Below are positions 1 through 60,424 of a DNA stretch of 64,000 nt, in pieces. The notes below the pieces were generated by a model. It did not search any database. It saw only the letters and a program-made list of their open reading frames with translations, and was not told the DNA's origin. The position numbers and the translations under genes are program-made. The DNA lies in IMG/VR virus record IMGVR_UViG_3300025687_000001, positions 96,862 to 160,861 of that record; one strand, given 5' to 3'. Positions within the stretch are counted from its first letter, which is position 1. The number at the start of each line of letters is the position of its first letter. This DNA is from a virus.

Positions 1-3000
1 TCTCAGCTAGCCCTCGGTGCTTTTTTAGGTCCTGTAGCGCGTAGGCGTTAGCCATGGTCTCGTCACGCAGAACCCGAAGCGCTCCCTTGAGAGTGTCCCT
101 CTTAGGCGCTGCGTTCATGTCCGTGCGGATAGCCGCCCGAATCTGATCATCCAGCGTTAGAGCCCCAGACCTGCGGGCTCGATTTTCAAAATCTCGAGCG
201 TGTCCTAGCTCGTGCGCCAGGAACTCCGGGGTGTGCGCCTGCACTGCCTGCCTACGCGAGTAGTCGTAAGTCGGAGACTCAACCCCCCGGTTCATGGGAT
301 GGTTGCGATCTGCCGTAACCCCGAATCCCCCTTCGGGGCTCACATGTACCAGCCCTCTATCGTTGATGATCTTGCGACCGAAGTCCTGCATGTCAGCTTC
401 GACCTTGGCCTTAGCCTGATCTAAGCTGAACCCTTCGGCCATGATGTCCCGAAGGCGCTTATCGCCGTACTCATTGATCTGCTTGCGGTAGTTGTTTACC
501 GCAGCCATGCTGAGTGGCTTGTGAAGGAAGGGCACGGCCCCTGCTGCGCCTAACCCAAGCCCTGCAGCTACCTCGGGTACAGAGACGTCTTCCGGGTTTA
601 CCTTGGACAGGCCGTAAATAGCTCCAGCACCGCCCAGACCGATGGCTCCGCGAGCGATGTTAGGCGCGTGCCGCAGCAACTTGTCTCGTCGCAGCGCAGA
701 TCGCTGCTGCTTTGCTACCTCAGCAATCGCGTCTTCTGTGGACATGCCGGCTGCGCGCAAATCACGAACAGCACGCGCCTTAGCTTCCTCTGGGTCTGGC
801 GTGTACTCGAGCACCGTCTCCAGGCTGGGGTCGCTGGCAATGTCTCTAGGCAACAGGGAGCTGAGGCTCTTGTTCTGCCGAGCCTTGGACGCCGGGTCCA
901 TAGTCCCACCAGGAAGAACTGTGCAAACCCCCCCGGCGCACCGAACCTCCTCGCCTAGTTGACTAGGAGTCTTAGGCTGCTTGTTGGTAAGCTTCCCCCA
1001 CAGCTTAGCAACGGGGTCTGGCACCAAGATTTCTCGCAGCCCACTCTTGACAGACTTGCCTACGCTGTACGTCGGAGCATCTCCGTGCTGGCCGTACATA
1101 GACTGTAGGAACTTAGCTCGGTCCTGCTCCCCTGTCAGGGACGCCATGGCCGGGTCTTTGTGCCGTAGGATCCGCACTCGGCGCTCAGGATTGATACCCG
1201 CGTCACCTATGTCACTCATGACATGGCGTCGATCTGGCGCAATGTCCAGAACCTTGCCGGGTCCCCACCCCACGTTAGCGTGGGTATAGTCAGCAGACCC
1301 TTGAGTCGCCGCCACTAGATTGCGGATAGGGTCACCTTTGTCAGACCCCGAGAGGACGATATCGCCTGGCTTCAAGTTAGCCGTTATGTAGTCAAAGTTG
1401 TGGGTGCTGGTACCCGGCGTGTGCAGCGGAGCCCGACGATTAGTAAGCGCAGTAACCGCAGGCACCCCCGCCGCTACCCCCATGAGGGAGTTGCGTAGCG
1501 CGTGGGACTCCTCATCTTGCTGCCAGGGCAAGGCAGCACCCGTCTTCTCCCCCTCGCGACCTTTGCTGTACTGAACCCCTGCTCCGATGCCACCAATGCC
1601 CGCGCCGATACCTAGTTGCGCCAAGAAGGTGTTATACCCAGACTGCGCTGCGGGCTGCATAGCCCTAGCCACTTCAGGTGGGAGGTGCCCTTTGTCTAAC
1701 TGCTGAAGAGGAGTCAAGGCGGACATGTCCCCCGCCTCAATAGCCTCCCGGACTTTCCTTGAGGCACTGGGAGTACCGAGGTTTCCGCCAGTCTCCATCA
1801 CAGTAGACACTGGCGTCTGCCCAGTAATGAACTCCAGAGAGTCCTTCTCCGGCCGTGTAAGCTTACGACTGTAGCCTTTAGGAGCGCGAGCTGCTTCATC
1901 CAACAGCTTAGTAGCCCGTCTCCCATGATAAACTCCTCGGAAGGGCATAGCAGCGCCCTCCAGGAAACCGCGCCCGAGACCCCGCCAACCCCCCTTAGCT
2001 CCACCCTTGAAACCCTCGATGAGCCCAGTCACCATGCTAGGGACCAACAACCCGCCTCCCGCTAATCCTCCAGCAATGCCCACGCCCTGCTTGAGGTTAT
2101 GCTCTCCCTCAGAGATACCTGCCCGCTGGTTACGTGCCCCATACTCAGACGTCCAGACGCCAAAGGGGCCCAGACCCGCAGCAAAGTCCTGTCCTAGATT
2201 GGTAGGCTTCTCGGACTTCCAGAACGCACTCGTCTTTACGCGCGTAAGCAGCCACTTCCCGTCCTTCGTACGCAGCAGCCGCATCTTTCCCTGGTCAGGC
2301 ACATCGAACTCCACTTTACCTGGCGCAGACGACACCATAGTGTCCGCGTCAAGTATAGCGTCAACCTTGCCTGCCCCGTACGTTCCCTCCGGGATTTCCC
2401 CCGACCACCCCGCGTAGTCCGCTGTGTGGGTAGGCTGAAGCAAAGCAAGCAGCTTCTGTCGCTTCTCGTCGGGCCACTGAGCTCGAGGCACCGCCCAAGA
2501 GTGAGCACGGCTGGTCTCCGGATCAACCAGGCGAAGGTCCCAGTGCTTTCCCGCGCGGTTTGCGTTGTGGAGCTGGGTGGTTAGGCGCCAGTTGGCGTCT
2601 TGGACCTCTGGGATTGGGTGGATTTGGCGGGAGGCGGGGATGCCTGGGGCGAATTCTTCGGAGGACTGCTTCTTCCGAAACCAATTGCCCCCACCCCACC
2701 GATCTTCATAGTCGCCCTCCTCGAAACCCGCTGCAAGGAACGCCTTCCGAGAAGGCTCGTTGCTCGTCTCAATGAACGCAATGCCGTCCCCATGTTTTGC
2801 GACGTGCTCCCGGATGGCCTGCGCGGCCAAGCCCTTCCCTCGGTGCTCCGGCTGAACGTAGATGGCGCCCACCCGGTGCATCCCCGAACCCCTGGACTGG
2901 CGCGGAGTGTGGAACCCCACGATCTCACCATCGACTGTGATTGGAACCCGAACTCTATCCTTGTCCCTGGGGCGTACGTACCCGCGTAGATAAGGCTCCT

Positions 3001-5116
3001 GATTAGCCTCGAGGAGGAGTTTGTAAGGGATACCGGGGGCGAATTCCCCCTGCGGTAACCCTGCCTCCTCCGAGAACTTCTTCAGCTCAGACCTAGCCCA
3101 TGGTGATTCGACTACGTCGTAGTGTCCGCGAAGCTTATCCGCCAGGGTGGTCTTACCAGCGGCCACGTCCCCCATGAGGAAGTTGATCTCGGAGGTCTTA
3201 GTCCGGAGAAGCTCCGCAAAAGGGGCTCCACCAACAGTTCGTACCGCGAAGGCAGGGTTGCCCTGAACATCCCTAGCGGGGCGAACTCGGTACTCCCCCA
3301 AAGGGGCCTCTAGCTCCCGTCTGAATAGAGGCACCTCATACGTAGGGTTCCTAGTGCTAACAACGCTAGTAGGGTCCGCCGTCCTGTTTGAGTCGCGGAC
3401 AAACCTTTCGTAATAGGGTCGATCCCATAAATCAGAGGCCTTGGTTACTGCGTGACTGTGCACCTCCGGGTAACTACCCGCCGCACCAGACCTGGAATAC
3501 GCAAACAACTTACCATCTACAGGTGCCCAGGATGGCTCCCCCACAATTCCAGTGGCATACCCCGCCGCTACGTCCGGGTGTCGAGTAGTGAAGACCAACT
3601 TACCGCCCTCTTCCGGCAGAGCATTGCCCCTGAAGAGCACGTCAGTAGGGCTGCTAGGGTTAGCTAAGATCTCAGCGGACCCTGTACTGGGCAGCAACAC
3701 CTCGTCCGCTGCCGGCAAGTGCTTCCCCTTAGCTCGCTCCCGAATAGAGTCAGTAGCTGCCGCTATGTCCCTACGCACTTGATAGGCAGGCTTGCTTCCA
3801 CTCCATGCATGCGCGCGATAAAGCTCTCTTGCGGCAGAGTCAGCTCTGGCACCTACCCGCCTGCGTTGCGCGTTACCCTCGATTAGCTCGTCTACAACAT
3901 CCCCGGCCCCCCGGCCCGGCTTACCGCTCTCTGGAACACCAAACCGCCTTTCTAGCGCGCCATACCAGTCCTTGCGCTCCTGCCTAGTAGTAGGGTTCAA
4001 CAAGTCCGCTATAGCGGCGTTGGACTTAGGCCCCACATCAGGCCCAGCCGCATGGAGGCGCTTGATCTCCTTAGTAATCCCCGGTCGGACCTCTTCTAAT
4101 AGAGCTAGTGCTTGTCTGGTGCTTGCTCGCGCAGCGTACTTGCTAATAGGAGCCGAGGAGCTCTTCTTAAACTCCCTCCACCTCTCCAACTCCTCCCTCA
4201 AACTCTCCGGCACCCCGCCCTCACGCCCAATACGCGCGTAGATCTCATCCAGGTCAGTAATGCTCGGCTCGCCCTCACGGTGAAGGCCGTACCTATTGAA
4301 CGTGTAGCCCTTCTCTTTAGCTAGGCGCTTGTCGTGGATGATGCCCTTGCCCCGAAGCCACTGAGCTAGCGCGGGCTCGAAGTGTTCCTCAGTGGTCTTG
4401 AAGACATCTACGCCAGGCTGCTTGGGCAGGTCAGTGACCCCCTCCTTAGGGACCACCAGGAGGTCAAGGTCTTTTGGGTCGGGGTGGCCCCTCCCGGTGG
4501 AGCCTACAGTAGCCTGGTAGCGAATTTGGTCTGCTAGGGACTCTGGGGCCGCACCACTCTGCTTAGGAAACAGCGAAGTATACCCAGACCTAAAAACCTC
4601 GGGCAGCGACCCCACGGTGGCCCCCGCCCCCGCCCCACCAAGAAGCGCGATCAGCTTGTGCTTGGGGAGCAGCTTTGTGAAGCCCTTGTTGGGGTGAGCT
4701 GCTTCCCAAATTGCGCCAGACAACGCCCCTGCTGCCGGCGCTACCCCTAGGGCTCGGTCCGTTAGCGTCGGCTCCTGCGATCCCGTGTTCCAGAACGCTT
4801 TCTTCTCCTCCTGCCCGCCAAACAGCGCCCGCACCGCCAAAGCTTCCTCGTCGCTGTACCCGCGCTCGGACCCCTTGTGAGCTCCGCCTACCCAGAGCCT
4901 GTCAGGGTAGAGATGAACCTGCCCCCGCTCAGTGTGCAGTCCGTAGTGCGGGCCGCGCTTGGACTCTCCGAAGTGCGCTCGAGGACCGAACTTGAGATGC
5001 ACCGGTTCGTACTTAGAGCCAGGGCTCCGCTTAGCCGCGCGCTTCTTCTTGAGGCGCTCGATTTCCGCTATGAACTGTAGGAGCTCGTTCTGAGTCGGGG
5101 TACCTTGGTCGTTCAC
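1..5116 (-). CDS. Giant multidomain (polyvalent) protein, >1700 aa, truncated at left edge; PolX-like, ART, P-loop stub, GNAT, LigD phosphoesterase, permuted papain-like, zincin and Gly-rich hydrophobic modules
   Basis: Hand translation from GTG at 5116 gives no stop down to position 1 in one frame. Motifs: GSTGRGHPDPKDLDLLV...AKEKGYTFNRYGL; VLFRG...FTTRHPDVAAGYA...YEV; GDVAAGKTT; IYVQPEHRGKGLA; HNANRAGKHWDLRL...SWAVP...GEIPEGTYGAG; LKPGDIVL...YTHA...VCT...LLPRD; LAHELGH. Confidence 0.9.
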   Translation of the reverse strand, partial: MNDQGTPTQNELLQFIAEIERLKKKRAAKRSPGSKYEPVHLKFGPRAHFGESKRGPHYGLHTERGQVHLYPDRLWVGGAHKGSERGYSDEEALAVRALFGGQEEKKAFWNTGSQEPTLTDRALGVAPAAGALSGAIWEAAHPNKGFTKLLPKHKLIALLGGAGAGATVGSLPEVFRSGYTSLFPKQSGAAPESLADQIRYQATVGSTGRGHPDPKDLDLLVVPKEGVTDLPKQPGVDVFKTTEEHFEPALAQWLRGKGIIHDKRLAKEKGYTFNRYGLHREGEPSITDLDEIYARIGREGGVPESLREELERWREFKKSSSAPISKYAARASTRQALALLEEVRPGITKEIKRLHAAGPDVGPKSNAAIADLLNPTTRQERKDWYGALERRFGVPESGKPGRGAGDVVDELIEGNAQRRRVGARADSAARELYRAHAWSGSKPAYQVRRDIAAATDSIRERAKGKHLPAADEVLLPSTGSAEILANPSSPTDVLFRGNALPEEGGKLVFTTRHPDVAAGYATGIVGEPSWAPVDGKLFAYSRSGAAGSYPEVHSHAVTKASDLWDRPYYERFVRDSNRTADPTSVVSTRNPTYEVPLFRRELEAPLGEYRVRPARDVQGNPAFAVRTVGGAPFAELLRTKTSEINFLMGDVAAGKTTLADKLRGHYDVVESPWARSELKKFSEEAGLPQGEFAPGIPYKLLLEANQEPYLRGYVRPRDKDRVRVPITVDGEIVGFHTPRQSRGSGMHRVGAIYVQPEHRGKGLAAQAIREHVAKHGDGIAFIETSNEPSRKAFLAAGFEEGDYEDRWGGGNWFRKKQSSEEFAPGIPASRQIHPIPEVQDANWRLTTQLHNANRAGKHWDLRLVDPETSRAHSWAVPRAQWPDEKRQKLLALLQPTHTADYAGWSGEIPEGTYGAGKVDAILDADTMVSSAPGKVEFDVPDQGKMRLLRTKDGKWLLTRVKTSAFWKSEKPTNLGQDFAAGLGPFGVWTSEYGARNQRAGISEGEHNLKQGVGIAGGLAGGGLLVPSMVTGLIEGFKGGAKGGWRGLGRGFLEGAAMPFRGVYHGRRATKLLDEAARAPKGYSRKLTRPEKDSLEFITGQTPVSTVMETGGNLGTPSASRKVREAIEAGDMSALTPLQQLDKGHLPPEVARAMQPAAQSGYNTFLAQLGIGAGIGGIGAGVQYSKGREGEKTGAALPWQQDEESHALRNSLMGVAAGVPAVTALTNRRAPLHTPGTSTHNFDYITANLKPGDIVLSGSDKGDPIRNLVAATQGSADYTHANVGWGPGKVLDIAPDRRHVMSDIGDAGINPERRVRILRHKDPAMASLTGEQDRAKFLQSMYGQHGDAPTYSVGKSVKSGLREILVPDPVAKLWGKLTNKQPKTPSQLGEEVRCAGGVCTVLPGGTMDPASKARQNKSLSSLLPRDIASDPSLETVLEYTPDPEEAKARAVRDLRAAGMSTEDAIAEVAKQQRSALRRDKLLRHAPNIARGAIGLGGAGAIYGLSKVNPEDVSVPEVAAGLGLGAAGAVPFLHKPLSMAAVNNYRKQINEYGDKRLRDIMAEGFSLDQAKAKVEADMQDFGRKIINDRGLVHVSPEGGFGVTADRNHPMNRGVESPTYDYSRRQAVQAHTPEFLAHELGHARDFENRARRSGALTLDDQIRAAIRTDMNAAPKRDTLKGALRVLRDETMANAYALQDLKKHRGLAE

Positions 5117-5168
5117 GGCTTATCAGCCCCACATTAAGACTAATTCAGTTATAAGATAATTGACCGAG

Positions 5169-5642
5169 ATGAACATCTTTGTATTGGACTCGGACCCCGC
5201 AAAAGCGGCTGAATTCCACTGTGATAACCACGTCGGAAAGATGCTGCTGGAGTCCGTGCAAATGCTCTCCACGGTGCGTCGACTCTACGGGTATACCGCG
5301 CCCTACAGAGCTACGCACCCAAACCACCCTGCGACTGTGTGGGTCAGGGAATCCAGAGCCAATTACGTTTGGCTGTATGACCTGGCTCGAGAACTAGACA
5401 TCCAGCACGTCGCACGCTTTGGCACACGGCACAGCTCCGGCAAAGCACTGAGCAAAGTGCTCCTGGTGCCCGCTGAGCTCCCGGACACTCCGCGTACAAA
5501 GTTCGCTCAGTGCATGCCGCCCAAGTACCAGCACGCTGACGCGGTCGTGGCCTACCGAAAGTTCTACGCTGGGGAGAAGGCGCACTTTGCTACCTGGCGC
5601 AACGAAGAGCCGTATTGGTGGCGAATTATGTGTCATAAGTGA
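5169..5642 (+). CDS. Pyrimidine-dimer DNA glycosylase / endonuclease V (DenV)-like protein
   Basis: N-terminal MNIFVLD...HCDNHVGKMLLESVQMLST, HPNHPATVWVRES, AYRKFYAGEK match this phage family. Confidence 0.8.
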   Translation: MNIFVLDSDPAKAAEFHCDNHVGKMLLESVQMLSTVRRLYGYTAPYRATHPNHPATVWVRESRANYVWLYDLARELDIQHVARFGTRHSSGKALSKVLLVPAELPDTPRTKFAQCMPPKYQHADAVVAYRKFYAGEKAHFATWRNEEPYWWRIMCHK

Positions 5643-11496: not shown

Positions 11497-11515
11497 TCTG
11501 GTATAAGCGGTTAGC

Positions 11516-30511: not shown

Positions 30512-33500
30512 GTACCAAACCGGGCCTATGGGCAGGCGGCATTCACGCAGCGCAAGTCAAGTTTGACGCCTGCTGCGAGGTGCTGTGGATGTTGGGGTGG
30601 CAAGACATTCACGGTCCTCAGATTATTCTTCACACAGGGTACGATCGAATGAAGCGCGTGTTTCGGCTCTCTACAAACCCCGCGATTTTGCTCCCCCACC
30701 GAGCTCGAGTGTTTTTTTGGGCACGGCGCCGCAGACTACAGCCGAGGGGCCTATGTCCGCGTGGAGGTGGTAGTGACCACACCGCCAGAACCGGGCCAAC
30801 ACCCCTACCTGCTCTACGACGGTGACGGGTGTCCCCGACCTCCTAGCTTTGTTGTCGTACAATGGGACAACCTACAAGCCCTAGGAGAAGCACTCTATGA
30901 ATACACTGCTGCAGCGATTAGCGGACGCATTTGAGCTGATGGGGTGGGAGGAGACTCCTCCTCCGTCTCGTAGGTACAACCAAGACGCGCCTCTCGACAA
31001 TCCAGGGAGGTTTAAGTTTCCGGAGTCCCTGACAACCAAGAAGACCCCCAACACGCCGGTAGCGGTGCGAAGGTTTTCGCCGCCGCCAGAGTCCCCTGCC
31101 TACCCGCTAACAGCGCTAGCAACGCAAGTAGCGTCAGGCAAGATTCGCGTGTCCGTCCGAGCACTAAGGCTCTCCCCCGAAGTCTGGGAAGACTTTGTGT
31201 TTGACGAGCTGGACGACATGTCTCCGAAGCTGCACGAGGCTGTGCAGAAATTGGCTGCCCTGCTCCCCCCTAAAGAAGCCGCCACCGAGAACCACATCGT
31301 CTCTATGACGCTTGGTGGCGGCTGTACCGTGTCTAGCTTCACGGGATCGGGGTCCGTGACCGCACTTGCAACCCATATGACCTCGGAGGACTCCTACACG
31401 GTAACGATGAACGTCGAGTGCCCGAGGTGTGGATTGCAACATGTAGCTAGCCCCAAATAAGCTCCACTAGCTCTAGACGCACGTATGCACGAGCCTGTTA
31501 CAGGCTCACTGTGGCCTTCTGACAAACCACGAGGGCTCTGACCATAAGAAACTCACCTCCGGCCCTGGCCGGCGGTTGCGTAGTTTCACCACTTACCGAC
31601 GGCAGCAGAAGCCGGAGGGAAGTCGTAGAGCTAGACACAGACACATTAGCCGGTGTCGACAGGCACCACGAGCTTGTAACGAGCTCACTGCGGGGGTACG
31701 GAGGTTGGTTTACATCATATCCCGACCACAACCTAGTCATTTCGCAAAAGTGACTCGCTCCGCCCCGCTCCTCTCGTCACTCTGTCCGCTGCGCGGCCAG
31801 AGCGACCGATTATACCCATGCCGGGTCTAATAGGTCTGTTTTGCGAAATAGATCGTAATGTGTCTCAAAACGCCTAAGTTTTTAGGCCGTCAGCAACAGC
31901 AGCACTGCTACCACCAACACGACGGCCACAACCTGGTATAAGTCAATGCGAGTTATGTACAGAGATCCTTCCAAAGCACTCAGCCACGCAGGCCTGGGAC
32001 GAGGCTGGCGCATTGTGGGGAACACCCCGCTTCAAATGCGCAAGTACGTCACCGACCACGCATACGTGGAAATGAGCGCACACGACAAAGTCAGTGTCTT
32101 CGAGTTGAGGACATCTCCCCCCACGTCTTCCAACGCAAGGCGGTTTACGACCAAACACGTCTGGGCGGAGACTCACAGGACCCTAAGCAATTTCTCCGAA
32201 CAGGAGCTAGCCGAGTTCCTGCCCCGTCTGGAGGCTAGAGCAAGAGACCTTGCCAGATCACCGACCGCCGCCCCACCAGATCCCGAAGCGCCTCGTTCTT
32301 AGATTTACGGAGCTAACGAAGACGCTGACTGAGCTATCAGGGTGGAATTTCCCCCCGGCGCTGTCCTGGCCCAACGTGTCAATGAGCTACACCACGCTCT
32401 ACGACTCGCCCCTGCGATACGGTCAGCTCTTCCATCGACAGCCTGATGGCGACTTAACTGGAGGAGCGGATCTCTGGTACGTCCCAGAGGACGCCACCAC
32501 TCGGCTGGCAGTTTTTCGTTGCGACCTCACCCCTGGCGGGCAGCGCAGGTATTTCACAAAGCACCTCCGCCCAGCGCTAACAAACAGACTCTGTTACGTG
32601 CAAACCTGGCCTTTTCTAACGGAGGGCATGCTCGACCCGGACACCCCACCTACGCCCAGCATCGAGTACCTGGCGGAGTGCCACGCACATCTGGTAGAAG
32701 CGCGCCACGTAGCGTTGGAGTTGCTAGAGGGGTTGTGCAACCAGAAGAGCTAGTCGAGCATTTTCGACAAGCAATCCTTTTGGCGCCTAGCGCAGGCTGG
32801 CACTGTCCGCAGGCTCTGAGCGCCGCAAAGATCCGGTATGATGGGCCTACTTCGAGGCGGATTACGGGAGAGCGGCTGGCGGTGAAGCTGTTGTACCGAG
32901 CTGGTAGCCCAACAGGACGACTGTACCGTGCTGGTCTGCACCCGGCCTCCGCGCCAACCAAGATCCCCGGAGAAGCGTGCATCGCACTGCTAGTAGTAAA
33001 GCGCCCCCAGATGCGCAGGCTGACTATTTATAGCGCTCAGGAGTCCTACGGGATGCACCTGACCCTGAACAAGGCCCGTCGTCGAGAGCTCCGCGACCCA
33101 CCCGACTCAGCGCTAGCAGCGTATGAAATCCTACTGAGGCTAGACATGCTCGCTGAAGGCGCGTGGGCCCGGTACACTCCTTACACGGACCAGTTGGTGT
33201 GGCGCGGCTAGACACAGAGCGCAAGCAGCTCGCTCCGCTCAACAAAACAACGCAGGACTTGTTCAAGCAGGCATTGGTGTCTGGGTACTTGCCGAGCTGG
33301 TGTGCCTGGGACCACTTACCTTCGCGGCTTTCTTACCTTCGCGTATCCCCCCAGAAGTCTGGCGCTTTTATCGCTGCCCGCCTAGGGTGGGTTCCGACGC
33401 CGCCTTCCCGATTCCTCGGCAGTGGCATACTAAAGGTGGAGACCTTGCGTCCCCTGGTGGTTGTGGCTAGCCGAGCTAAGTCTAGGCGGCTGACGCTGTA

Positions 33501-51676: not shown

Positions 51677-51710
51677 GACGAAATACTACATGATTCAGGT
51701 ATAAGGAAGT

Positions 51711-53310: not shown

Positions 53311-53685
53311 TTAGCGAGTCAGTTTCTGCCAGGCGCTGTCACCTTCACGCGAGATGGCGGAGCCCTTGGCGGCGCCGTAAGTGCCCCCCAGGCCAGCACC
53401 TAGCAGACCGGCCAGCATTGCGCCTCTCCCCCCTCCAGCGAGGCCTCCCAGCGCTCCCGCCCCCAAGCCGCCTGCGGCCCCTCCCAAGAGACCGCCGCCC
53501 GTCATATGCCCCCACCGGCTCAAGCCTCGACCCTCAGGAGCATTAAACGCTGCGAGCAGAGGCCCGCCTAACAGCGCGTTCCCTACGTCCGTGGAATCAA
53601 TGTCGGCAGCCGCCTTAACAACCCCAGCATCAATCAGCGCCTGCTGCGCGCCAACGTCGTATGCCTGCTTAAGAAACGGGTTCAT
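53311..53685 (-). CDS. Leader-family glycine-zipper protein 1
   Basis: MNPFLKQAYDVGAQQALIDAGVVKAA then GxxxG-rich hydrophobic helices. Confidence 0.75.
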   Translation of the reverse strand: MNPFLKQAYDVGAQQALIDAGVVKAAADIDSTDVGNALLGGPLLAAFNAPEGRGLSRWGHMTGGGLLGGAAGGLGAGALGGLAGGGRGAMLAGLLGAGLGGTYGAAKGSAISREGDSAWQKLTR

Positions 53686-53698
53686 TTTAGCTCCTAAA

Positions 53699-53761
53699 CT
53701 ACAGATTTTCTTCTTTGACTAACGAGTCAGTGTCGTATGCCTGCTTAAGAAACGGGTTCAT
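53699..53761 (-). pseudogene. Deletion remnant of a duplicated leader-family gene (20 aa)
   Basis: 53732-53770 is identical to 53656-53694 (39 bp incl. RBS and start); encodes MNPFLKQAYDTDSLVKEENL. Confidence 0.7.
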
Positions 53762-53772
53762 TTTAGCTCCAG

Positions 53773-54450
53773 TTAGAAACCAATTGCATCGTCGATGGCG
53801 TCCGAGCCCTGGTGGCCGTCCTGCTTAGCGCCGGGGTCCCACGGGAGAAGCCTATCACACATGCCGGAGACGTTCTCCATGATCATGTTCTGCCCGGCGT
53901 TAAGCCCAACAGTCCACTGGTTCATGCAGCACAGCTCTAGGTAAAATCCCCCCAAAGTGTTGTGGCTCTTGTCGCGGAAAGCGATAGCCATCCCGAAGGG
54001 GATGAGCAGAAGCTCCGAGTCAAGGTTAACGAAGTAATCTGTTTGCTTTCCGCGAGGGTGAATGGGCTCATCGAAAGTATCCGGGTCTACCCCGGCTTCG
54101 ATAGCATTACGGTACAGAGCCTTCACCATGTTACGGCCCTTAACGAAGAGCCGCCCCATCTGCCAGGTTAGCGAGCTTTTACCCGATAGGAAAAAGCTGC
54201 GCCCCGACCCGATGGTCTGCACAGGCACGGTAGGCTTAGCCTGCGCCACCTGGAACGCTTGCATCATGCCCACGGCGTACAGCTTGCGCCCCGCAACGTT
54301 GTCGTTGCGCAGCTTCATGCGCGGAGGACCAATCATGACGAGAGTGTCATCCGGGTGCGCGGCTGTGTAGGCCGCGTTGTCCATGATACGCTCTACGTAC
54401 TGGTCCTGGTAGAGCCACGAGTTGAGGTCCTCGGTTACCTTATCAGCCAC
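53773..54450 (-). CDS. Probable tail tube protein
   Basis: 225 aa, downstream of the sheath; beta-rich AVGMMQAF...QTIGSGRSFFLSGK...LELC...IMENVS. Confidence 0.65.
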   Translation of the reverse strand: MADKVTEDLNSWLYQDQYVERIMDNAAYTAAHPDDTLVMIGPPRMKLRNDNVAGRKLYAVGMMQAFQVAQAKPTVPVQTIGSGRSFFLSGKSSLTWQMGRLFVKGRNMVKALYRNAIEAGVDPDTFDEPIHPRGKQTDYFVNLDSELLLIPFGMAIAFRDKSHNTLGGFYLELCCMNQWTVGLNAGQNMIMENVSGMCDRLLPWDPGAKQDGHQGSDAIDDAIGF

Positions 54451-54931
54451 GGTTGTCCTCCGGGTTCATTTCCTTGAGACGCTGGCGGTACCAGTGGGTC
54501 CCGTAGCCGCTGCCTCCAAGGCTACCTAGGATTGCGGGAAGCGCAATCATCTTTGCTCTAGTGTCGTCGCTCAGGTCTGCGCCGAGAGCGTTAGCGAGGG
54601 CGCCTGCGCCCCAGCCTCCAAAAGCGCCTCCGAGGGCTCCTAGCGCTCCACCGCCGATACCCGCACCGGTACCTCCGACAGCGTGCATGATGCGGTCATT
54701 GGGCGCCGTAGCCCCGCTAACGATGCCTCCAGCAAGGGGGCTCAGCAGAGCGCTGGCGGCCGGAGCAGCGTAATCGCCTGCGGTGACCAGCGCGTTTTGC
54801 CCTTTGGGCTTAGCCTTGGGCTTGGACTCAGACTTAGGCTTCTTTTTAGCCTCGTCGTCGGACTTTGCCGCGAACTTCTGGAAGTCCTCCAGCGCCTGCC
54901 GGGCCCCTAACTGGTAAGCAACGTGAAGCAT
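54443..54931 (-). CDS. Leader-family glycine-zipper protein 2
   Basis: MLHVAYQLGARQALEDFQKFAA then Gly-rich hydrophobic helices. Confidence 0.7.
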   Translation of the reverse strand: MLHVAYQLGARQALEDFQKFAAKSDDEAKKKPKSESKPKAKPKGQNALVTAGDYAAPAASALLSPLAGGIVSGATAPNDRIMHAVGGTGAGIGGGALGALGGAFGGWGAGALANALGADLSDDTRAKMIALPAILGSLGGSGYGTHWYRQRLKEMNPEDNRG

Positions 54932-57294
54932 TACTGCGACACCAGGTGCACAATGAGTTTGTTGAGTACCTTGGGCAGCGTTACCTCAACATAGGTCTCC
55001 ATGGCGGAGCTGTCCGCAGCGGAGGCGCCGATGCTGCTGATCTTGCCGCTAAGCAGCGGCGACCCGATCTTCGGACGGAAGTCGGTTCGCAGGCTCTCGA
55101 TGGCGGAGTTGATGGTGTCGCTGACCGAGTTGACAGCCTCAGGGATGAAGTTCCACACACCAACGAACGGCTCCAGCCGGCCTTTCATGACCAGGGAGAC
55201 GTAATCGAAGTTGCGAACCACGCTGAGCTCTGCATACTCCTGAACGCCAGGGTTGTCGATCTGGCCCGTGGTGACCTGGTGCACAACGTAAGGCAGGCCA
55301 GCAACGCTGTCCTGGACAAAGACGTAGTACCCGCCGTCACCGAGAGCATCGATCTCGTCGTCCGAGAAGTGCAGGTTGGTGTCGAAGACCTGCTCGACGC
55401 CAGCAATGCCAATCTGGTTGAAGGGCTGATGCGGCGCCAGCGAGGCGTTCATGCCCCCCACAGCAGCCGCCAGGTAGTACGCCGGGAGCCCGGTAGTGCC
55501 GAGCACCTTGCAGCTACCCGCGTACACCATGGTGAGGCGCTTGCTGCCAGCGCTAGCAATGCGAGCAAGGAGCTCGTCCTTTTGCTGGGTTGTGCTGGAG
55601 CTAATGCTGCGCTGGACGGTGTAGGTAAGGCTGTTAGCGGTCTCAGCAACCTCGCCCCCACCAACGTCGGTGATGGTGAGCGCGTTCTCGTTGACTACAG
55701 CGGAAACAACGTAGGTCTCGCCGCCAGTGACAACAAGGGTGTCTCCTACGACCACGCCATCAGTAACAAACTGCGCGTTGAGATCAGAGAAGGTCCCTGG
55801 GTTCCCAGCGACCACCGATCCAGTATCCGTCTCCGCCCCCAGCACCGGGCCAACATATTTGAAGCTAGGCAGCCCAGCACTGGCACCGATGACGTGGCGG
55901 AAGTTGCCCTTCTCAGGAGCCGACTGCGCAACCGCGGCATTCTTAAAAGGAGCAATGACGTTAGCCAAATCCGTGCTCAGGGGCACTATGCAGTAGATGC
56001 TCTTGTTGGCGTTGATCTTCGACCGAGCAGCGGTGTACCCGGCAGTGTCGTCGCTGGCGATGGCCAGGCACTGCAGGTTGGTAGCGCCAGCGTTGCTAAG
56101 CGCCACGTACATGGCCAGGCCGAGAGGGTTCTTGTGGTGAACCTTCCCGATGTCAGCGAACTCGTTGTTCGAGGGGATGCTCGAGTGCGTGATGAAGTCG
56201 GCCAGATTGTTGATAAGGCCCCGGGCCTCGACCTGAACCGTGGCGCGGGTGACTACGGCTGTGCCCTCAGGGACGGCCATGGAAATCTGGTTGTTACCGC
56301 CACCTCCGAGGACAATATTGGTGTCGTCGAAGGCCACCTCTCCGGCAGGGACGGCCCAGCCGGGTGCGTTGCCGTTGGTGCTGGCCGCGAGGGAACGCTC
56401 GATGTAGCAGGAGGCCCGGCTGCCTGCGTCGTTGCTGGTCTTGAAGCGAAGATTTGCAGCCACAACCAGCTCTGTTTGGCTAGAAACAGACTGGACCGCC
56501 ACTGCGACCGGGACGTGCTTCAGAAGACTCGCCCTCTGATCCACGACGGCGAGAGCGCCGATGGTGTACCCGAACCGGGAATCCCCGCCACCAGAGTCCG
56601 CGTTCAGCTCCGCCCCCGCCAGAGTGTCAAAAACACCTCCAGCGCCGTCTGCGTCTGCCAGCAGGAGGCGGTTGTCATCGATTACCTGAAGCACCGTAAA
56701 GGCCCCGGCACCGACAGCATCAAGAACCGTAGAGTCGTTCTGCGTATTGTTGAACGTAACGACGTCCCCCACGGACACATCCGTCAGGAACGCGGCGGAC
56801 GCGTCTAGGTCCACCAGTACCTGAGGCATGTTGGACTGGATTACAACCTTGTCCCCGATCTTAACACCCCCTGCGGGGCTAGTGCTGGAGAGGTCGGCCG
56901 CTGCGAAAGTCAGCGTGTGCGCGTCCGCGCCAATGGTAACGTCATTGGCAGCGATGTCATTCTTTACTAGGTAGTAAACGGCCTCGAGGAACGCAGCCGG
57001 AGGGTGGTCCCCCGCAGTGTCGATATCGTGCTCAGCCCCAAACCCAAACGCAGACCACGCAATCGTGCTCGCCGGGCCATCCGGGTCAGGCCATGCTCCG
57101 GCGGTAATGGTGAACGAGTTATCCCCCCACCCTCCGGAACCATTAGGAGCGTAAGCAACGCCCGCCCCGCGGTTCTCGGGATACTCGACCACCTTGTAAG
57201 CGGGGCCCACGATGCACGTAGACAGGTCGGGGTTTGCCGGAGTCAGAATGACGTTGGCAACTTCCTGTCGGATTTCAACTAAAGGACGCGGCAT
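54931..57294 (-). CDS. Contractile tail sheath protein
   Basis: MPRPLVEIRQ...TCIVGPAY N-terminus; YYLAAAVGG, HQPFNQ, FSDDEIDAL..GGYYVFVQ, ELSVVRNFDY, YVEVTLPKVLNKLIVHL C-terminus. Confidence 0.88.
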   Translation of the reverse strand: MPRPLVEIRQEVANVILTPANPDLSTCIVGPAYKVVEYPENRGAGVAYAPNGSGGWGDNSFTITAGAWPDPDGPASTIAWSAFGFGAEHDIDTAGDHPPAAFLEAVYYLVKNDIAANDVTIGADAHTLTFAAADLSSTSPAGGVKIGDKVVIQSNMPQVLVDLDASAAFLTDVSVGDVVTFNNTQNDSTVLDAVGAGAFTVLQVIDDNRLLLADADGAGGVFDTLAGAELNADSGGGDSRFGYTIGALAVVDQRASLLKHVPVAVAVQSVSSQTELVVAANLRFKTSNDAGSRASCYIERSLAASTNGNAPGWAVPAGEVAFDDTNIVLGGGGNNQISMAVPEGTAVVTRATVQVEARGLINNLADFITHSSIPSNNEFADIGKVHHKNPLGLAMYVALSNAGATNLQCLAIASDDTAGYTAARSKINANKSIYCIVPLSTDLANVIAPFKNAAVAQSAPEKGNFRHVIGASAGLPSFKYVGPVLGAETDTGSVVAGNPGTFSDLNAQFVTDGVVVGDTLVVTGGETYVVSAVVNENALTITDVGGGEVAETANSLTYTVQRSISSSTTQQKDELLARIASAGSKRLTMVYAGSCKVLGTTGLPAYYLAAAVGGMNASLAPHQPFNQIGIAGVEQVFDTNLHFSDDEIDALGDGGYYVFVQDSVAGLPYVVHQVTTGQIDNPGVQEYAELSVVRNFDYVSLVMKGRLEPFVGVWNFIPEAVNSVSDTINSAIESLRTDFRPKIGSPLLSGKISSIGASAADSSAMETYVEVTLPKVLNKLIVHLVSQ

Positions 57295-57373
57295 GAGTAG
57301 ACTCCGCTAGGTAAACGGTCTTCGTCAGTGAAATTATAGGGGGGCTCTGTAGCCCAGCAACCCCGCGAGATAA

Positions 57374-58021
57374 CTACTCCCCCAAATCCACTCTAGCCAG
57401 GCTATCAAACGCCAGCTGGTGGTAATCAACGTTGTTGGAGTGGGTGATACGAGTGTCGAGGCTTTGGATCTTCCGGGCTACCGGGCGCTCCGCCCACTTG
57501 ACGTCGAACGAGATCTCCGAAGTTACGCGCGTAGAGTAGAGCCGGTTGTCCTTCTCCCAGACCGTGGTGGGCCCCAGCGTAATCGGCGTATTGTCGCGGA
57601 TGTTGTAAACGCGGAGGATCTCGTTGGAGCTCATCAGCAGGAAGCCCTGCACAATGTCACCCAGGACAGCGCTCTCTCCTCGGTTGCTCGAGACGCAGTC
57701 CACCAGGATTTGCCCGTTACCTACGCAGTAGTACCCCTTGAGACCCGTGTGGTTCTGCTGGCCCGCAAAGTCACCCACCGTGACCTGGGGAAAGATGATG
57801 GCAGCGCGGTCTACGTAAAGAGCCGGACGAGCGTCGTTTTTCTTTAGCTCATCGCCCGCGCCAGCTTCGATGTAGATGCGAGAGAGGTGGTCCTCCTCGT
57901 TGTAGAACCACTGAAAGGTCTCTCCAGGCGAAGAGAACCGCTCACGCAGCGTAGCTAGGTAAACCCCGATGATGTGGAGAGGGGATTTGACGAGGACGTA
58001 TGGGTGTTCGGTGGCGGGCAC
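57374..58021 (-). CDS. Probable tail terminator/completion protein
   Basis: Position between neck and sheath; PALYVDR, VDCVSSNRGES. Confidence 0.55.
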   Translation of the reverse strand: MPATEHPYVLVKSPLHIIGVYLATLRERFSSPGETFQWFYNEEDHLSRIYIEAGAGDELKKNDARPALYVDRAAIIFPQVTVGDFAGQQNHTGLKGYYCVGNGQILVDCVSSNRGESAVLGDIVQGFLLMSSNEILRVYNIRDNTPITLGPTTVWEKDNRLYSTRVTSEISFDVKWAERPVARKIQSLDTRITHSNNVDYHQLAFDSLARVDLGE

Positions 58022-58024
58022 AGG

Positions 58025-58384
58025 CTACTCCCGCATGGCTTTCTCTGTAACGGCACCTGTTAGGGCGCCGCCGAGAATGCCTCCTCCTAGCACCGGCAGA
58101 CCAACAAGCTCGAACATATCAGAGTCCGGCATCCGCTTAGCCCACCGACCCAGGGCCAAGGCGGTAGCAGCGCCCCCTAGGCCTGCGCCTATAGTTGTCC
58201 CGGCCGGGTACGGTGTGTCGCTGTCCTTCTTGTAACTGGCGTAGCCCATAAGCCCGGCCCCAGAGCCCCCTCCGAGGAGAGCGGCAACCAGGTTGGGGTT
58301 GTCCCCCACCCAGGACCGGAACCCTGCTTCCTTAACCGCCAGCTCTACGCCCGCCTCGTAGGCCCGTTTGAGGAAGTAGTTCAT
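58025..58384 (-). CDS. Leader-family glycine-zipper protein 3
   Basis: MNYFLKRAYEAGVELAVKEAG + three Gly-rich helices. Confidence 0.75.
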   Translation of the reverse strand: MNYFLKRAYEAGVELAVKEAGFRSWVGDNPNLVAALLGGGSGAGLMGYASYKKDSDTPYPAGTTIGAGLGGAATALALGRWAKRMPDSDMFELVGLPVLGGGILGGALTGAVTEKAMRE

Positions 58385-59172
58385 TCGGTCAAATCCAGTT
58401 CAACAGCGTAAGCAGCGTCAGCGCGGCTTAGCTCGCTGATCTGCAAATCTTGGTGCACCGTGATCCTGCTGGACTCGGTGGGGATTTTTTGCCTGACGAT
58501 GAAGCGCCGGTTAGTGCGCATCTCCACCAGGACGTCTTCGGGCTCCATCAAAGGATAGTCCAACATGGTAGCACTGAACATAGCACTATCAGTGAGACCA
58601 GTGTTGTCAGCGCGCTGGCTGACTACTGCGGGGTCTAGCTTAGCCCAGATAGTGACGGGGTCGTGGTAGCCGCCGTCGAAGCTGGTGCCGTAGCACTTCC
58701 CACAAGAGCTGAGTACTACGTCTTTAGTGCGGGGGTTGTAGCAGACCGAGCAGCGAGTACCGAACCGCTTGCGCTTGAGAGCTACCAGCTTTACGCCATT
58801 GAGCTTGCGTAACTGGATGTCCAGGTCTCTGCGAGCTTTGCGACCAATACGGCCACGCCACTTGTCTTCCTGGTGAAAGACTGTTTGCGGCGCTGACGCT
58901 GCTGCGTTGTCTGGCCCTGTCTCGGGGATGGCCTGGACAATGTACCAGGCCCGGTTGGTAAGGTTGAGCTGCGGGACGGGCTGGTCCATGTAGAAGAAGT
59001 TGTTGTCGCGAACCTCTTCTTCGGAGACCTGCTCGAAGGGGCCGGTAGGAGACCCGGACCTAAAAATCTTGAAGGTGTAGGGTGTGTTGTCGGGGTTCTC
59101 CATCGTCCACTGGATGAAGACCTCGTGGGGGTAGACGGGCAGTACGCGCGTAATGGTGATTTTGGCGGCCAT
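58381..59172 (-). CDS. Probable neck/head-closure protein (FN3-like + Zn-binding)
   Basis: IQWT...KIFRSGSP..PF; RCSVCY...CGKCYGTSFDGGY; PLMEPEDVLVE..NRRFIV. Confidence 0.6.
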   Translation of the reverse strand: MAAKITITRVLPVYPHEVFIQWTMENPDNTPYTFKIFRSGSPTGPFEQVSEEEVRDNNFFYMDQPVPQLNLTNRAWYIVQAIPETGPDNAAASAPQTVFHQEDKWRGRIGRKARRDLDIQLRKLNGVKLVALKRKRFGTRCSVCYNPRTKDVVLSSCGKCYGTSFDGGYHDPVTIWAKLDPAVVSQRADNTGLTDSAMFSATMLDYPLMEPEDVLVEMRTNRRFIVRQKIPTESSRITVHQDLQISELSRADAAYAVELDLTE

Positions 59173-59597
59173 CAGTCCTCAGTAAGTAGCTTACCTATCC
59201 CCCACCCAGCCCCCGCTCCGGCCCCCAGACCTAGGAGGCCAAGCAGAGATCTGGGTCTTCCTATGTACCTGCCGTGATTCACATCGCGGAAGGCTTCCCC
59301 ACCCTGCACGGATTTACGTAGGTAATGTTGTATTTTGGCGTCATTCGGGTCTATGTCACCCTTAGTTAAGGGCTCTTGTATCCAATTTTCGTACGCCCGG
59401 TCTAGGTTAGAAGCGCCCAGGGACGCTCCTGCCATAGCTGCGGGTACCCCCACCATTGGGGCCCCGATTAATGCTCCTAAGTACGCATCTTTATTATCCT
59501 CATCCATACCCCGGGAGACGTGGCTTAGCATACCCGCCTCCTTAACCGCCAACTCAACCCCAGCAGCGTAGGCCTGCTTCAGGAACTCACTGTTCAC
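59172..59597 (-). CDS. Leader-family glycine-rich protein 4
   Basis: MNSEFLKQAYAAGVELAVKEAG + Gly-rich helices. Confidence 0.75.
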   Translation of the reverse strand: MNSEFLKQAYAAGVELAVKEAGMLSHVSRGMDEDNKDAYLGALIGAPMVGVPAAMAGASLGASNLDRAYENWIQEPLTKGDIDPNDAKIQHYLRKSVQGGEAFRDVNHGRYIGRPRSLLGLLGLGAGAGAGWGIGKLLTED

Positions 59598-59633
59598 GGT
59601 TCGCTCCTAGTGCTGGTAAAGCAATAGCTGGCA

Positions 59634-59951
59634 TCAGAAGGAGGACACTATATCTGACAAGCCCCACCCAAACTGCCCCCAAGGAGACTTCGCCTCATGG
59701 ATAGTTCTCCCAGATAGGCCAGCAAGCCTAGACAGCCCATACCCGGCTCCCGCGCCGATAGCTCCCCCCGCTAAACCTCGCCCCAGGGCTTCCCCAGGAC
59801 TATCCGCAGAGGCTACCCCCACGCTAGCGCCTAGGCCACCCCCTAACACAGGGACAACGGCGTTAGGGTTGCGTAGGAAGTTACCCACCCCGGCCTCCTT
59901 CAGTGCCATAGCGCATCCGGCCTCGTAGGCCTGCTTTAGGAAGTCATTCAT
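59634..59951 (-). CDS. Leader-family glycine-zipper protein 5
   Basis: MNDFLKQAYEAGCAMALKEAG; ATGA overlap with the upstream gene. Confidence 0.75.
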   Translation of the reverse strand: MNDFLKQAYEAGCAMALKEAGVGNFLRNPNAVVPVLGGGLGASVGVASADSPGEALGRGLAGGAIGAGAGYGLSRLAGLSGRTIHEAKSPWGQFGWGLSDIVSSF

Positions 59952-60424
59952 ATGTGGTACCACCCCCGCCAAAGGGGCGACCTAATGAATCCGCTAGCAG
60001 CCATGTTAGACGCGATCTTCATCTGCGAGACATGAGCCCGGAACTCCTGCTTGAGAGACCCCGCTAGCTGCAGGTACTGACCGTACTTGTCATCAATGCC
60101 CACGGGCTGGATGTTGCCGTCCTGGTAGCTGGCCTGGTTGCGCAGCTGACGGAAGGCCTCGCTCTGCATGAGGTAGTGAGCGGCCCCCGTTAGAAGCACA
60201 TACTTGTTAGGGAACGTAGCAGAAGTCCAGTTAGTGGCGCGATCCACAACATTGGCAATGTCCACAGCGCGGTCGATGGCGGTAGCGAGCTCAGTGTCAG
60301 AGAACTCTACGTCATCGAGCAGGGGGTTGTGGCCAGTGTAGTCCCGCAGAAAGTCACGCACCTCTGTTGTCGAGATGATTCCCGCGGGTGCTGGTGACGC
60401 TACTGGAGTTGCTACTACTGGCAT
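59948..60424 (-). CDS. Probable head-tail adaptor (neck) protein
   Basis: EVRDFLRD...NPLLDDVEFSDTEL, helical, RNQASYQDG; position in the neck module. Confidence 0.65.
   Translation of the reverse strand: MPVVATPVASPAPAGIISTTEVRDFLRDYTGHNPLLDDVEFSDTELATAIDRAVDIANVVDRATNWTSATFPNKYVLLTGAAHYLMQSEAFRQLRNQASYQDGNIQPVGIDDKYGQYLQLAGSLKQEFRAHVSQMKIASNMAASGFIRSPLWRGWYHI

Follow-up and report, generated by a model that had tools for sequence, protein, structure and literature searches.

Polyvalent proteins are polypeptides of phages and conjugative elements in which two to fifteen effector or enzyme domains of unrelated kinds are joined, and they are predicted to be delivered together with the DNA (Iyer, Burroughs, Anand, de Souza and Aravind 2017, PMC5512222). 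The peptidases listed for them in the main text of that paper are of the zincin, assemblin-like, DD and LonC types. The phage-type zincins are described there by a signature of a His ending strand 2, the HExxH motif, an Asp at +3 and a Glu in the next helix, and the ADP-ribosyltransferase (ART) domains as being of the H-Y-D and not the R-S-E type (PMC5512222). Here we describe a protein of 2222 aa, encoded by an uncultured freshwater phage, that appears to fit this concept as a new variant of it. The phage is known from IMG/VR record IMGVR_UViG_3300025687_000001 (160,861 bp, with direct terminal repeats). The gene begins within the 64,000-nt stretch of DNA that was analysed, which is the final 64 kb of the record (genome 96862-160861) and is called the window below.

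Other described systems share parts of this design. Virion-associated lysins and ejection proteins such as phiKZ gp181, T7 gp16, T5 Pb2 and SP-beta CwlP are very large and unite wall-degrading with membrane-active parts, as the 2222-aa protein is predicted to do, and they act at DNA entry (PMC5380687). MuF-fused toxins and polymorphic cargo proteins join a conserved virion-linked N-terminal part to interchangeable enzymatic cargo, a layout that the new protein resembles (PMC5512222). In phage T4 the ART Alt and other internal proteins are packaged, and their N-terminal capsid-targeting leader is cut by the prohead protease. Alt is the textbook model of a head-delivered ART of the R-S-E type, and the phage described here has a prohead protease homologue and nine leader-bearing proteins.

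The open reading frame (ORF) is real and encodes one intact protein. A minus-strand frame without a stop begins with a GTG at window 5116 and stays open as far as base 2 (1705 aa, open at its 3' end), from where it continues for 1.55 kb beyond the window edge to a stop at genome 95309. The complete ORF has 6669 nt (L002:11310-17978 (-)). Residues 1-1705 lie at window 2..5116 (-) and residues 1706-2222 to the left of the window at L002:11313-12862 (-). The GTG start agrees with the relatives P0003 and P0004, whose N-termini align within 3 residues of it. The identical protein is found on 6 JGI contigs, and ORF copies of the same length are present in Logan SRR5468113 (DNA 100% identical) and ENA ERZ27275027 (2 nt differences). 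No stops or frameshifts occur in the JGI, Logan or ENA assemblies, and because these assemblies are independent, the refutation by stops or frameshifts fails at the assembly level. With ORF variants only 0 and 2 nt apart, a per-domain dN/dS analysis has no power. The evidence below comes from computation on uncultured phages, and the functional claims are offered as hypotheses.

Three layers follow one another from the N- to the C-terminus: a conserved N-terminal domain, the enzyme cargo and two tandem conserved units. An earlier sequence-only reading of the window had reported the uninterrupted frame from GTG 5116, with its stop outside the window, and had described it as a hidden polyprotein of more than 1700 aa containing at least six unrelated enzyme domains. 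The frame and the number of enzymes are borne out. Six enzyme families are present, namely a family X DNA polymerase (PolX), an ART-like domain, a GNAT, a LigD-type 3'-phosphoesterase, C92 (twice) and a zincin, together with a kinase remnant, and each feature of that reading was found near the coordinates it gave. The length has to be revised from about 1700 to 2222 aa, and the label of polyprotein, which would call for proteolytic processing, is unjustified. All features of the protein described below are on the minus strand.

The closest relatives agree with the 2222-aa protein at its two ends. In a set of 5.8 billion proteins the only full-length homologue is the protein itself, and none was found in IMG/VR. 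P0003 (917 aa, L009:10001-12754) and P0004 (1106 aa, L014:3073-6393) have in common with it the N-terminal ~100 aa (67% identity) and the C-terminal unit (41-43%), and the cargo between them differs. In P0003 the cargo consists of a small nucleotidyltransferase-like stretch and a kinase; P0004 has the same plus a GNAT. P0005 (560 aa, L013) is a stand-alone unit with a zincin and no separate cargo, and its record, which is only 61% complete, contains no cargo homologue. A profile of the N-terminal domain recovered no further family members from IMG/VR, and a search with the unit profile recovered one viral locus and one metagenome locus. The comparison of domain order in relatives, which the sequence-only reading had proposed as a check, thus finds the ends constant and the cargo swapped in P0003 and P0004. 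As the relatives keep both ends and swap the enzymes, the protein has the appearance of a platform that delivers interchangeable cargo.

The borders of one such cassette are visible. The GNAT cassette (aa 691-827, window 2636..3046) carries the direct repeat EFAPGIP on both flanks (window 3026-3046 and 2636-2656), and the two copies are identical at 18 of 21 nt. By a rough estimate, the chance of a repeated 7-mer within 2222 aa is of the order of 0.01. A similar arrangement separates the two relatives. P0004 and P0003 are about 99% identical in the flanks, and P0004 has a 189-aa GNAT insert between exact 30-aa direct repeats; the pair provides a clean snapshot of domain insertion into this protein family. 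Duplicated linkers, as read from these repeats, evidently mark GNAT cassette insertions.

The GNAT assignment has strong support from profiles and motifs. The domain (aa ~700-812) scores 27.7 bits with PF00583, above the Pfam cut-off of 20.7, and also matches PF08445 and phrog_1249. Its acetyl-CoA motif A (R/Q-x-x-G-x-G/A) reads RGKGLA at aa 759. The GNAT named in the sequence-only reading is therefore upheld. It is also the only piece of the 2222-aa protein with similarity to cultured phages.

Equally strong support exists for the LigD-type 3'-phosphoesterase (aa 828-965, window 2222..2635), another domain recognised in the sequence-only reading. It exceeds the Pfam cut-off (PF13298, 43.4 bits against 31.1), matches TIGR02777 with E 9e-12, and matches the solved phosphoesterase domains 3p4h (E 3.6e-9) and 3n9b (E 3.4e-6). 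Residues H850, H858, D860, R862, H897 and Y901 align with the H..HxDxR..H...Y pattern of 3n9b and 3p4h, so that all six predicted catalytic residues are conserved. We take the corresponding metal and phosphate residues of P. aeruginosa LigD to be His42, His48, Asp50, Arg52, His84 and Tyr88. The full H-H-D-R-H-Y set is shared with the bacterial LigD of non-homologous end joining (NHEJ). Unlike in that system, the 2222-aa protein and the phage contain no ligase, no LigD primase-polymerase domain and no Ku.

A minimal PolX with palm and thumb only occupies aa ~186-325 (window 4142..4561). The homologue groups for this and the ART-like region were assembled by exhaustive HMMER search with aa 106-640 as the query. 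Among the PolX-region homologues the Pol beta thumb (DNA_pol_B_thumb) is matched by 16 of 17 and the palm by 6 of 17. The family profile matches the PDB sequences of T. thermophilus PolX (4e-14) and the 174-aa Pol X of African swine fever virus (ASFV; 1e-12), and also Pol lambda, beta and mu; with the single sequence as query the matches are weak (E 0.0076-0.14). The motifs GS...RG, D216-x-D218 and D237 are present, and the DxD aligns with the DVD of Pol beta. The third carboxylate is Asn in several homologues and is kept as Asp (D237) in the 2222-aa protein. The catalytic Asp residues and the match to ASFV Pol X, which is likewise a palm and thumb-only enzyme, give the assignment strong support and bear out the minimal PolX proposed from the sequence. 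As a difference from NHEJ and from Pol X, both the polymerase and the phosphoesterase sit here in a predicted phage effector and not in a cellular repair enzyme.

The P-loop stub of the sequence-only reading also proved correct. At aa 639-672 (window 3101..3202), with the Walker A motif GxxxxGKT at aa 649, the protein matches the start of the kinase in P0003 and P0004. Residues 640-671 share 84-88% identity with the opening 32 residues of the AAA_18 kinase, which is complete in these relatives, and the sequences diverge after 'DVVES'. The kinase beyond the Walker A region is missing from the 2222-aa protein. From this alignment the P-loop is evidently a remnant, 32 residues of a kinase domain that the relatives have in full.

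Between the polymerase and the remnant lies a family without Pfam assignment. A helical region (aa 326-440, window 3797..4141) extends the ART-like domain proper (aa 441-638, window 3203..3796) at its N-terminus, as P0042 aligns with aa 317-637. The homologues are mostly stand-alone proteins of 270-350 aa. Invariant residues are R496, H513-P514 and E594, and T510-T511 closes strand 2. In the model (pLDDT 80, pTM 0.78) strands 1, 2 and 5 (74-78, 88-92 and 175-179) carry R496, T510-T511 and E594, respectively; the motif around the Glu is xE only, not the usual ExE or QxE. Structural matches of the beta-core are all to ART-fold proteins (CARDS toxin, Scabin, EcPltA, cholix, Arr-2, tankyrase, PARP10 and CC0527), each of them weak (Z 2.9-3.9). 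The named BFVD rows, all non-significant, are ADP-ribosylases or polyvalent-protein domains, the Atlas gave a lead only (score 0.83), and the wide VIA structural search was dominated by the N-terminal helical hairpin. The profile found nothing among PDB sequences, and the single stray Pfam match among the 31 members scanned is DUF6415 (E 0.0048). We consider an ART fold of aa 441-638 probable. The ART-like call of the sequence-only reading is thus kept at moderate strength: the R/TT/E arrangement and the uniformly ART-fold core matches support it, and the structural scores are weak and no ART profile was matched.

The cargo domains keep similar company elsewhere. Metagenomic proteins combine ART-like, phosphoesterase, ATP-dependent DNA ligase and AAA_18 kinase (P0013), phosphoesterase, ligase OB, PolX and UDG (P0007), or phosphoesterase and PolX (P0027, P0031), so that both the phosphoesterase and PolX occur fused with ligase, UDG or kinase. 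Further fusions join the ART-like domain to an SNF2 helicase (P0056) or to an InPase (P0009). The repeated fusion of the ART-like domain to DNA-repair domains argues that it works in a nucleic-acid context. The gene contexts of P0012 and P0013 are uninformative on packaging. A metagenomic fusion protein of 2637 aa, P0022, contains no Pfam domain at all.

The two conserved ends frame this cargo. The N-terminal domain (aa 1-105, window 4802..5116) has counterparts in P0003 and P0004, whose N-termini share 67% identity with it, and has no match in Pfam or the Atlas. At the other end are two tandem paralogous units (aa 1200-1561 and 1756-2125, 41% identity, E 3e-80), the second of which lies outside the window. 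With both copies and the relatives aligned, a unit consists of an 'EESH' hydrophobic helix, a C92 core, a Gly-zipper stretch and a conserved tail that ends in a Gly-zipper. In unit 1 the helix and the YiiX/YaeF (C92) permuted papain-like domain occupy window 617..1531, the Gly-zipper hydrophobic stretch aa 1501-1545 (window 482..616), a zincin-like insert aa 1546-1690 (window 47..481) and the start of the tail aa 1691-1705 (window 2..46); unit 2 (aa 1756-2222) follows beyond the window edge.

Residues D1252, H1279, C1393 and C1398 are invariant across four aligned units. The His precedes the Cys residues, which form CxGGxC, and either Cys may be the catalytic one. Compared with 48,161 chains, the modelled C92 core matches 3kw0 with Z 8.5 over 127 residues, the sole chain with Z of at least 8; E. 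coli YiiX (2if6) is matched with Z 6.8 at 18% identity. In BFVD the unit matches viral YaeF/YiiX C92 proteins, OPG091 of poxviruses and NLP/P60 proteins, and the highest probability is 0.99. By sequence the unit has no Pfam match at E <= 1 and its profile no PDB match, and it would therefore be at best a distant, unclassified branch of YiiX/YaeF. The model gives good support to a YiiX/C92 permuted papain fold. The permuted papain/NlpC-P60 domain of the sequence-only reading is accordingly retained, with the correction that the module and its Gly-rich tail occur twice, which that reading had missed. Its statement that papain domains are established in polyvalent proteins does not hold for the main text of the concept paper, which mentions neither papain nor NlpC (PMC5512222).

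The zincin-like segment carries H1606, H1635-E-L-G-H1639, D1642 and E1686, all of which are conserved in P0005. This pattern fits the phage-type clade of polyvalent zincins (PMC5512222). The segment is present in unit 1 and in P0005 and missing from unit 2 and P0003, and it is, by this distribution, apparently an optional insert in the C92 and Gly-zipper unit. Support for the assignment is moderate. The HExxH zincin had been presented as a domain of its own; its motifs stand up, no profile matches it, and it is better described as an insert inside unit 1.

About ten Gly/Ala-rich hydrophobic segments of Gly-zipper-like character are scattered along the protein. One pair (aa 122-140 and 153-175, window 4562..4801) follows the N-terminal domain and is also found in P0068. 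A second pair (aa 1010-1036 and 1163-1183; window 1532..2221), which includes a helical linker, precedes unit 1, and aa 960-1200 have no Pfam match.

The phage is very divergent, with a terminase 32.5% identical to that of the nearest cultured phage. Its gene set includes a portal, a prohead protease, phiKZ-like RNA polymerase beta/beta' pieces, a helicase, a primase, a DNA polymerase and a baseplate wedge protein. The portal, prohead protease and multisubunit RNA polymerase genes are on the same strand. The polymerase beta/beta'-like genes (g023 and g028, genome 16896-24735; L003/L004) lie between those for the portal and the prohead protease, an arrangement that recalls the phiKZ-like virion RNA polymerase. 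The prohead protease homologue has no Pfam match. The ORF has the orientation of a block that runs from g085-g082 (Amidase_2) through g077, g076, g075 (1257 aa), g073 and g072 towards the baseplate wedge gene, and is located upstream of it. The gene order around the ORF is conserved in L009, and L013 has its stand-alone unit (P0005) within the same tail operon.

Downstream of the ORF are g095 and g096 (genome 94685-95312), the latter overlapping the ORF stop. Both bear an N-terminal leader, (F/L)K(Q/E)AY..G...AL.(D/E)(A/F)G, which is found in this position in 9 of 195 proteins, compared with 3 internal matches in 49,222 aa. The others are g026 (genome 19672-19902), g049 (genome 50102-50758) and g182, g184, g187, g189 and g190 (window 53311-59972). 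Most of these proteins run on into Gly-zipper-rich sequence (G up to 25%), and the leader is also present on P0005 and on one stand-alone ART-like protein. The leader may be a virion-targeting or processing signal. As for g096 (83 aa, genome 95061-95312), its counterpart is only a Cys-rich stretch, the last 75 residues, of a 458-aa protein encoded after P0003 (L009:12754-14130 (+)), and it represents another size-variable gene of the same operon. The 458-aa gene was considered as a split-off piece of the giant protein and was dropped, as it is not such a piece.

On its other side the ORF faces g098 (window 5160-5642 (+)), which weakly resembles the pyrimidine-dimer DNA glycosylase family (Pyr_excise; E 0.0016, short of the cut-off). 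It is a further possible DNA-repair gene beside the PolX and phosphoesterase pair. The motif CTTATA(A/C)C upstream of the ORF was examined as a shared late promoter and rejected; it is (T)GGTATAAG on the other strand, where it serves the divergent plus-strand genes. GGTATAAG, often in the form TGGTATAAG and then extended -10-like, occurs in 7 copies of a single orientation plus one variant, with copies at window 5147-5154, 11500-11507, 31935-31942 and 51698-51705 and at genome 29930-29937. In five cases the motif precedes, by 4-14 nt, a plus-strand gene at the head of a divergent operon (g034, g098, g108, g147 and g180). This placement suggests a promoter giving leaderless or very short-leader mRNAs.

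With modest confidence we favour the view that the 2222-aa protein is a 'polyvalent' effector of this ~161-kb tailed phage, incorporated into the virion and entering the cell with the DNA. Virion delivery is plausible from gene order and domain logic. The giant protein would be built into the virion and would enter the cell together with the DNA. The C-terminal units would open the wall, acting as a peptidoglycan or lipid amidase, and become embedded in the membrane. Damaged 3' ends of the linear genome would then, as it comes in, be healed and filled by PolX and the phosphoesterase and sealed by a host ligase, and the ART-like and GNAT domains would modify host or nucleic-acid targets. The zincin, the cysteine enzyme or both may release pieces.

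Several observations weigh against this view. Neither the leader motif nor its end is present within the 2222-aa protein, nor was a MuF, portal or known capsid-targeting element recognised in it. The ORF stands at a strand switch beside many small plus-strand genes, and nine plus-strand genes separate it from the tail block. The region at window 47-64 kb, which holds most of the leader proteins, has no PHROG or Pfam support as neck or tail. Ligase and Ku profiles have no match in the phage. The 'variable cargo' comes down to three architectures and a handful of family members. Some of the domain calls also carry limits: the 31 ART-like members scanned gave no match to an ART family or profile in Pfam or to the ART-PolyVal profile, no single structural match of the ART-like model is significant (Z <= 3.9; Foldseek against PDB and BFVD, E >= 0.09), the unit model has a pLDDT of 45 overall (60-78 in the core), and the zincin segment has no Pfam match and a pLDDT below 50.

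The same features bear on a second, rather unlikely explanation. The protein would be made after infection and not be packaged; anchored in the inner membrane by its Gly-zippers, it would act as a multi-enzyme station for DNA-end repair, host modification and wall remodelling during replication or lysis. The setting of the ORF, which is divergent from small plus-strand genes and lies 52 nt from its neighbour's ATG, would suit such a protein, as would the lack of a recognisable capsid-targeting, MuF or portal element. The Amidase_2 neighbour could be an endolysin, and P0013 and other fusions of the same repair domains are encoded among non-structural genes. Against it, the stand-alone unit of L013 is within a tail operon, the ORF shares the orientation of the structural block, leader-bearing genes follow directly with g096 overlapping its stop, and swapped cargo behind a conserved N-terminal domain is what delivered effectors show.

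It is improbable that the protein is instead a structural component of the tail, either tape-measure-like or a cell-puncturing lysin on the model of phiKZ gp181, T5 Pb2 or SP-beta CwlP, with wall and membrane penetration as its main job and the enzymes as add-ons. It adjoins tail genes, and its great size, hydrophobic segments and NlpC/P60-type and HExxH domains are reminiscent of virion-associated lysins (PMC5380687). However, the usual tape-measure position is taken by the separate 1257-aa protein, which is conserved in relatives, and a family that ranges from 560 to 2222 aa is ill-suited to be a length ruler. No sequence similarity exists to any cultured-phage tail protein, so the lysins would be functional analogues only. 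More than half of the protein is devoted to cytoplasm-type enzymology, a large cargo that the lysins do not have, and its wall-active module appears to be a permuted YiiX/C92 domain and not a lysozyme or transglycosylase.

A weapon like the polymorphic toxins, directed at competing phages or bacteria and with the C-terminal units as pore-forming toxins, is very unlikely. Glycine zippers are frequent in membrane-active toxins, and the exchange of cargo at cassette borders recalls polymorphic toxins; the latter, however, vary at the C-terminal tip, which is conserved here, and no immunity-gene pattern was seen downstream of the ORF. That the ORF is an assembly chimera, or a fusion of formerly separate genes in decay, can practically be dismissed, for despite the dead kinase remnant the 6669-nt ORF is identical in the JGI, Logan and ENA assemblies and all catalytic motifs other than that of the remnant are intact.

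We return to the virion-delivered polyvalent effector and to how it differs from the described systems. It resembles polyvalent proteins in joining many unrelated domains in one giant phage polypeptide, and GNAT, Pol-beta-superfamily, kinase, ART and zincin domains are typical of them (PMC5512222). Unlike the proteins covered in the main text of that paper, it contains a LigD phosphoesterase, a family X polymerase, an NlpC/papain fold and hydrophobic segments. Its ART-like domain is of the R/TT/E type without a match to the ART-PolyVal profile, whereas theirs are H-Y-D. Fixed ends, a tandem C92 and Gly-zipper unit and visible cassette borders are likewise not found in that main text (PMC5512222). 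Compared with T4 Alt, the protein lacks a leader and has no Alt homology, and its cleavage is hypothetical. In contrast to MuF-fused toxins, the N-terminal domain is not MuF by any profile and the C-terminus is conserved, not variable.

A more specific joint reading can be put forward only tentatively and is rather doubtful. In it, the N-terminal domain and the C92/Gly-zipper units would be a general phage vehicle by which exchangeable enzyme cassettes reach the host, the injected cargo of this phage would serve DNA-end healing, and the ART-like domain would use NAD to modify or cap the ends of nucleic acids and would not be a protein ART. The last point is proposed because the domain is repeatedly fused to LigD-type phosphoesterase, DNA ligase, PolX, UDG, kinase and SNF2 helicase.

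Three uncharacterised sequence families emerge from this locus: an ART-like family that keeps company with DNA repair, the C92 and glycine-zipper unit, and the short leader on nine proteins. If virion delivery is correct, the genome would arrive in the cell accompanied by the phage's own PolX and 3'-phosphoesterase, a new kind of counter to host nucleases that act on incoming ends. The insertion of cassettes at duplicated linkers between fixed ends would be diversification made visible, and the protein would offer a natural scaffold for cargo exchange.

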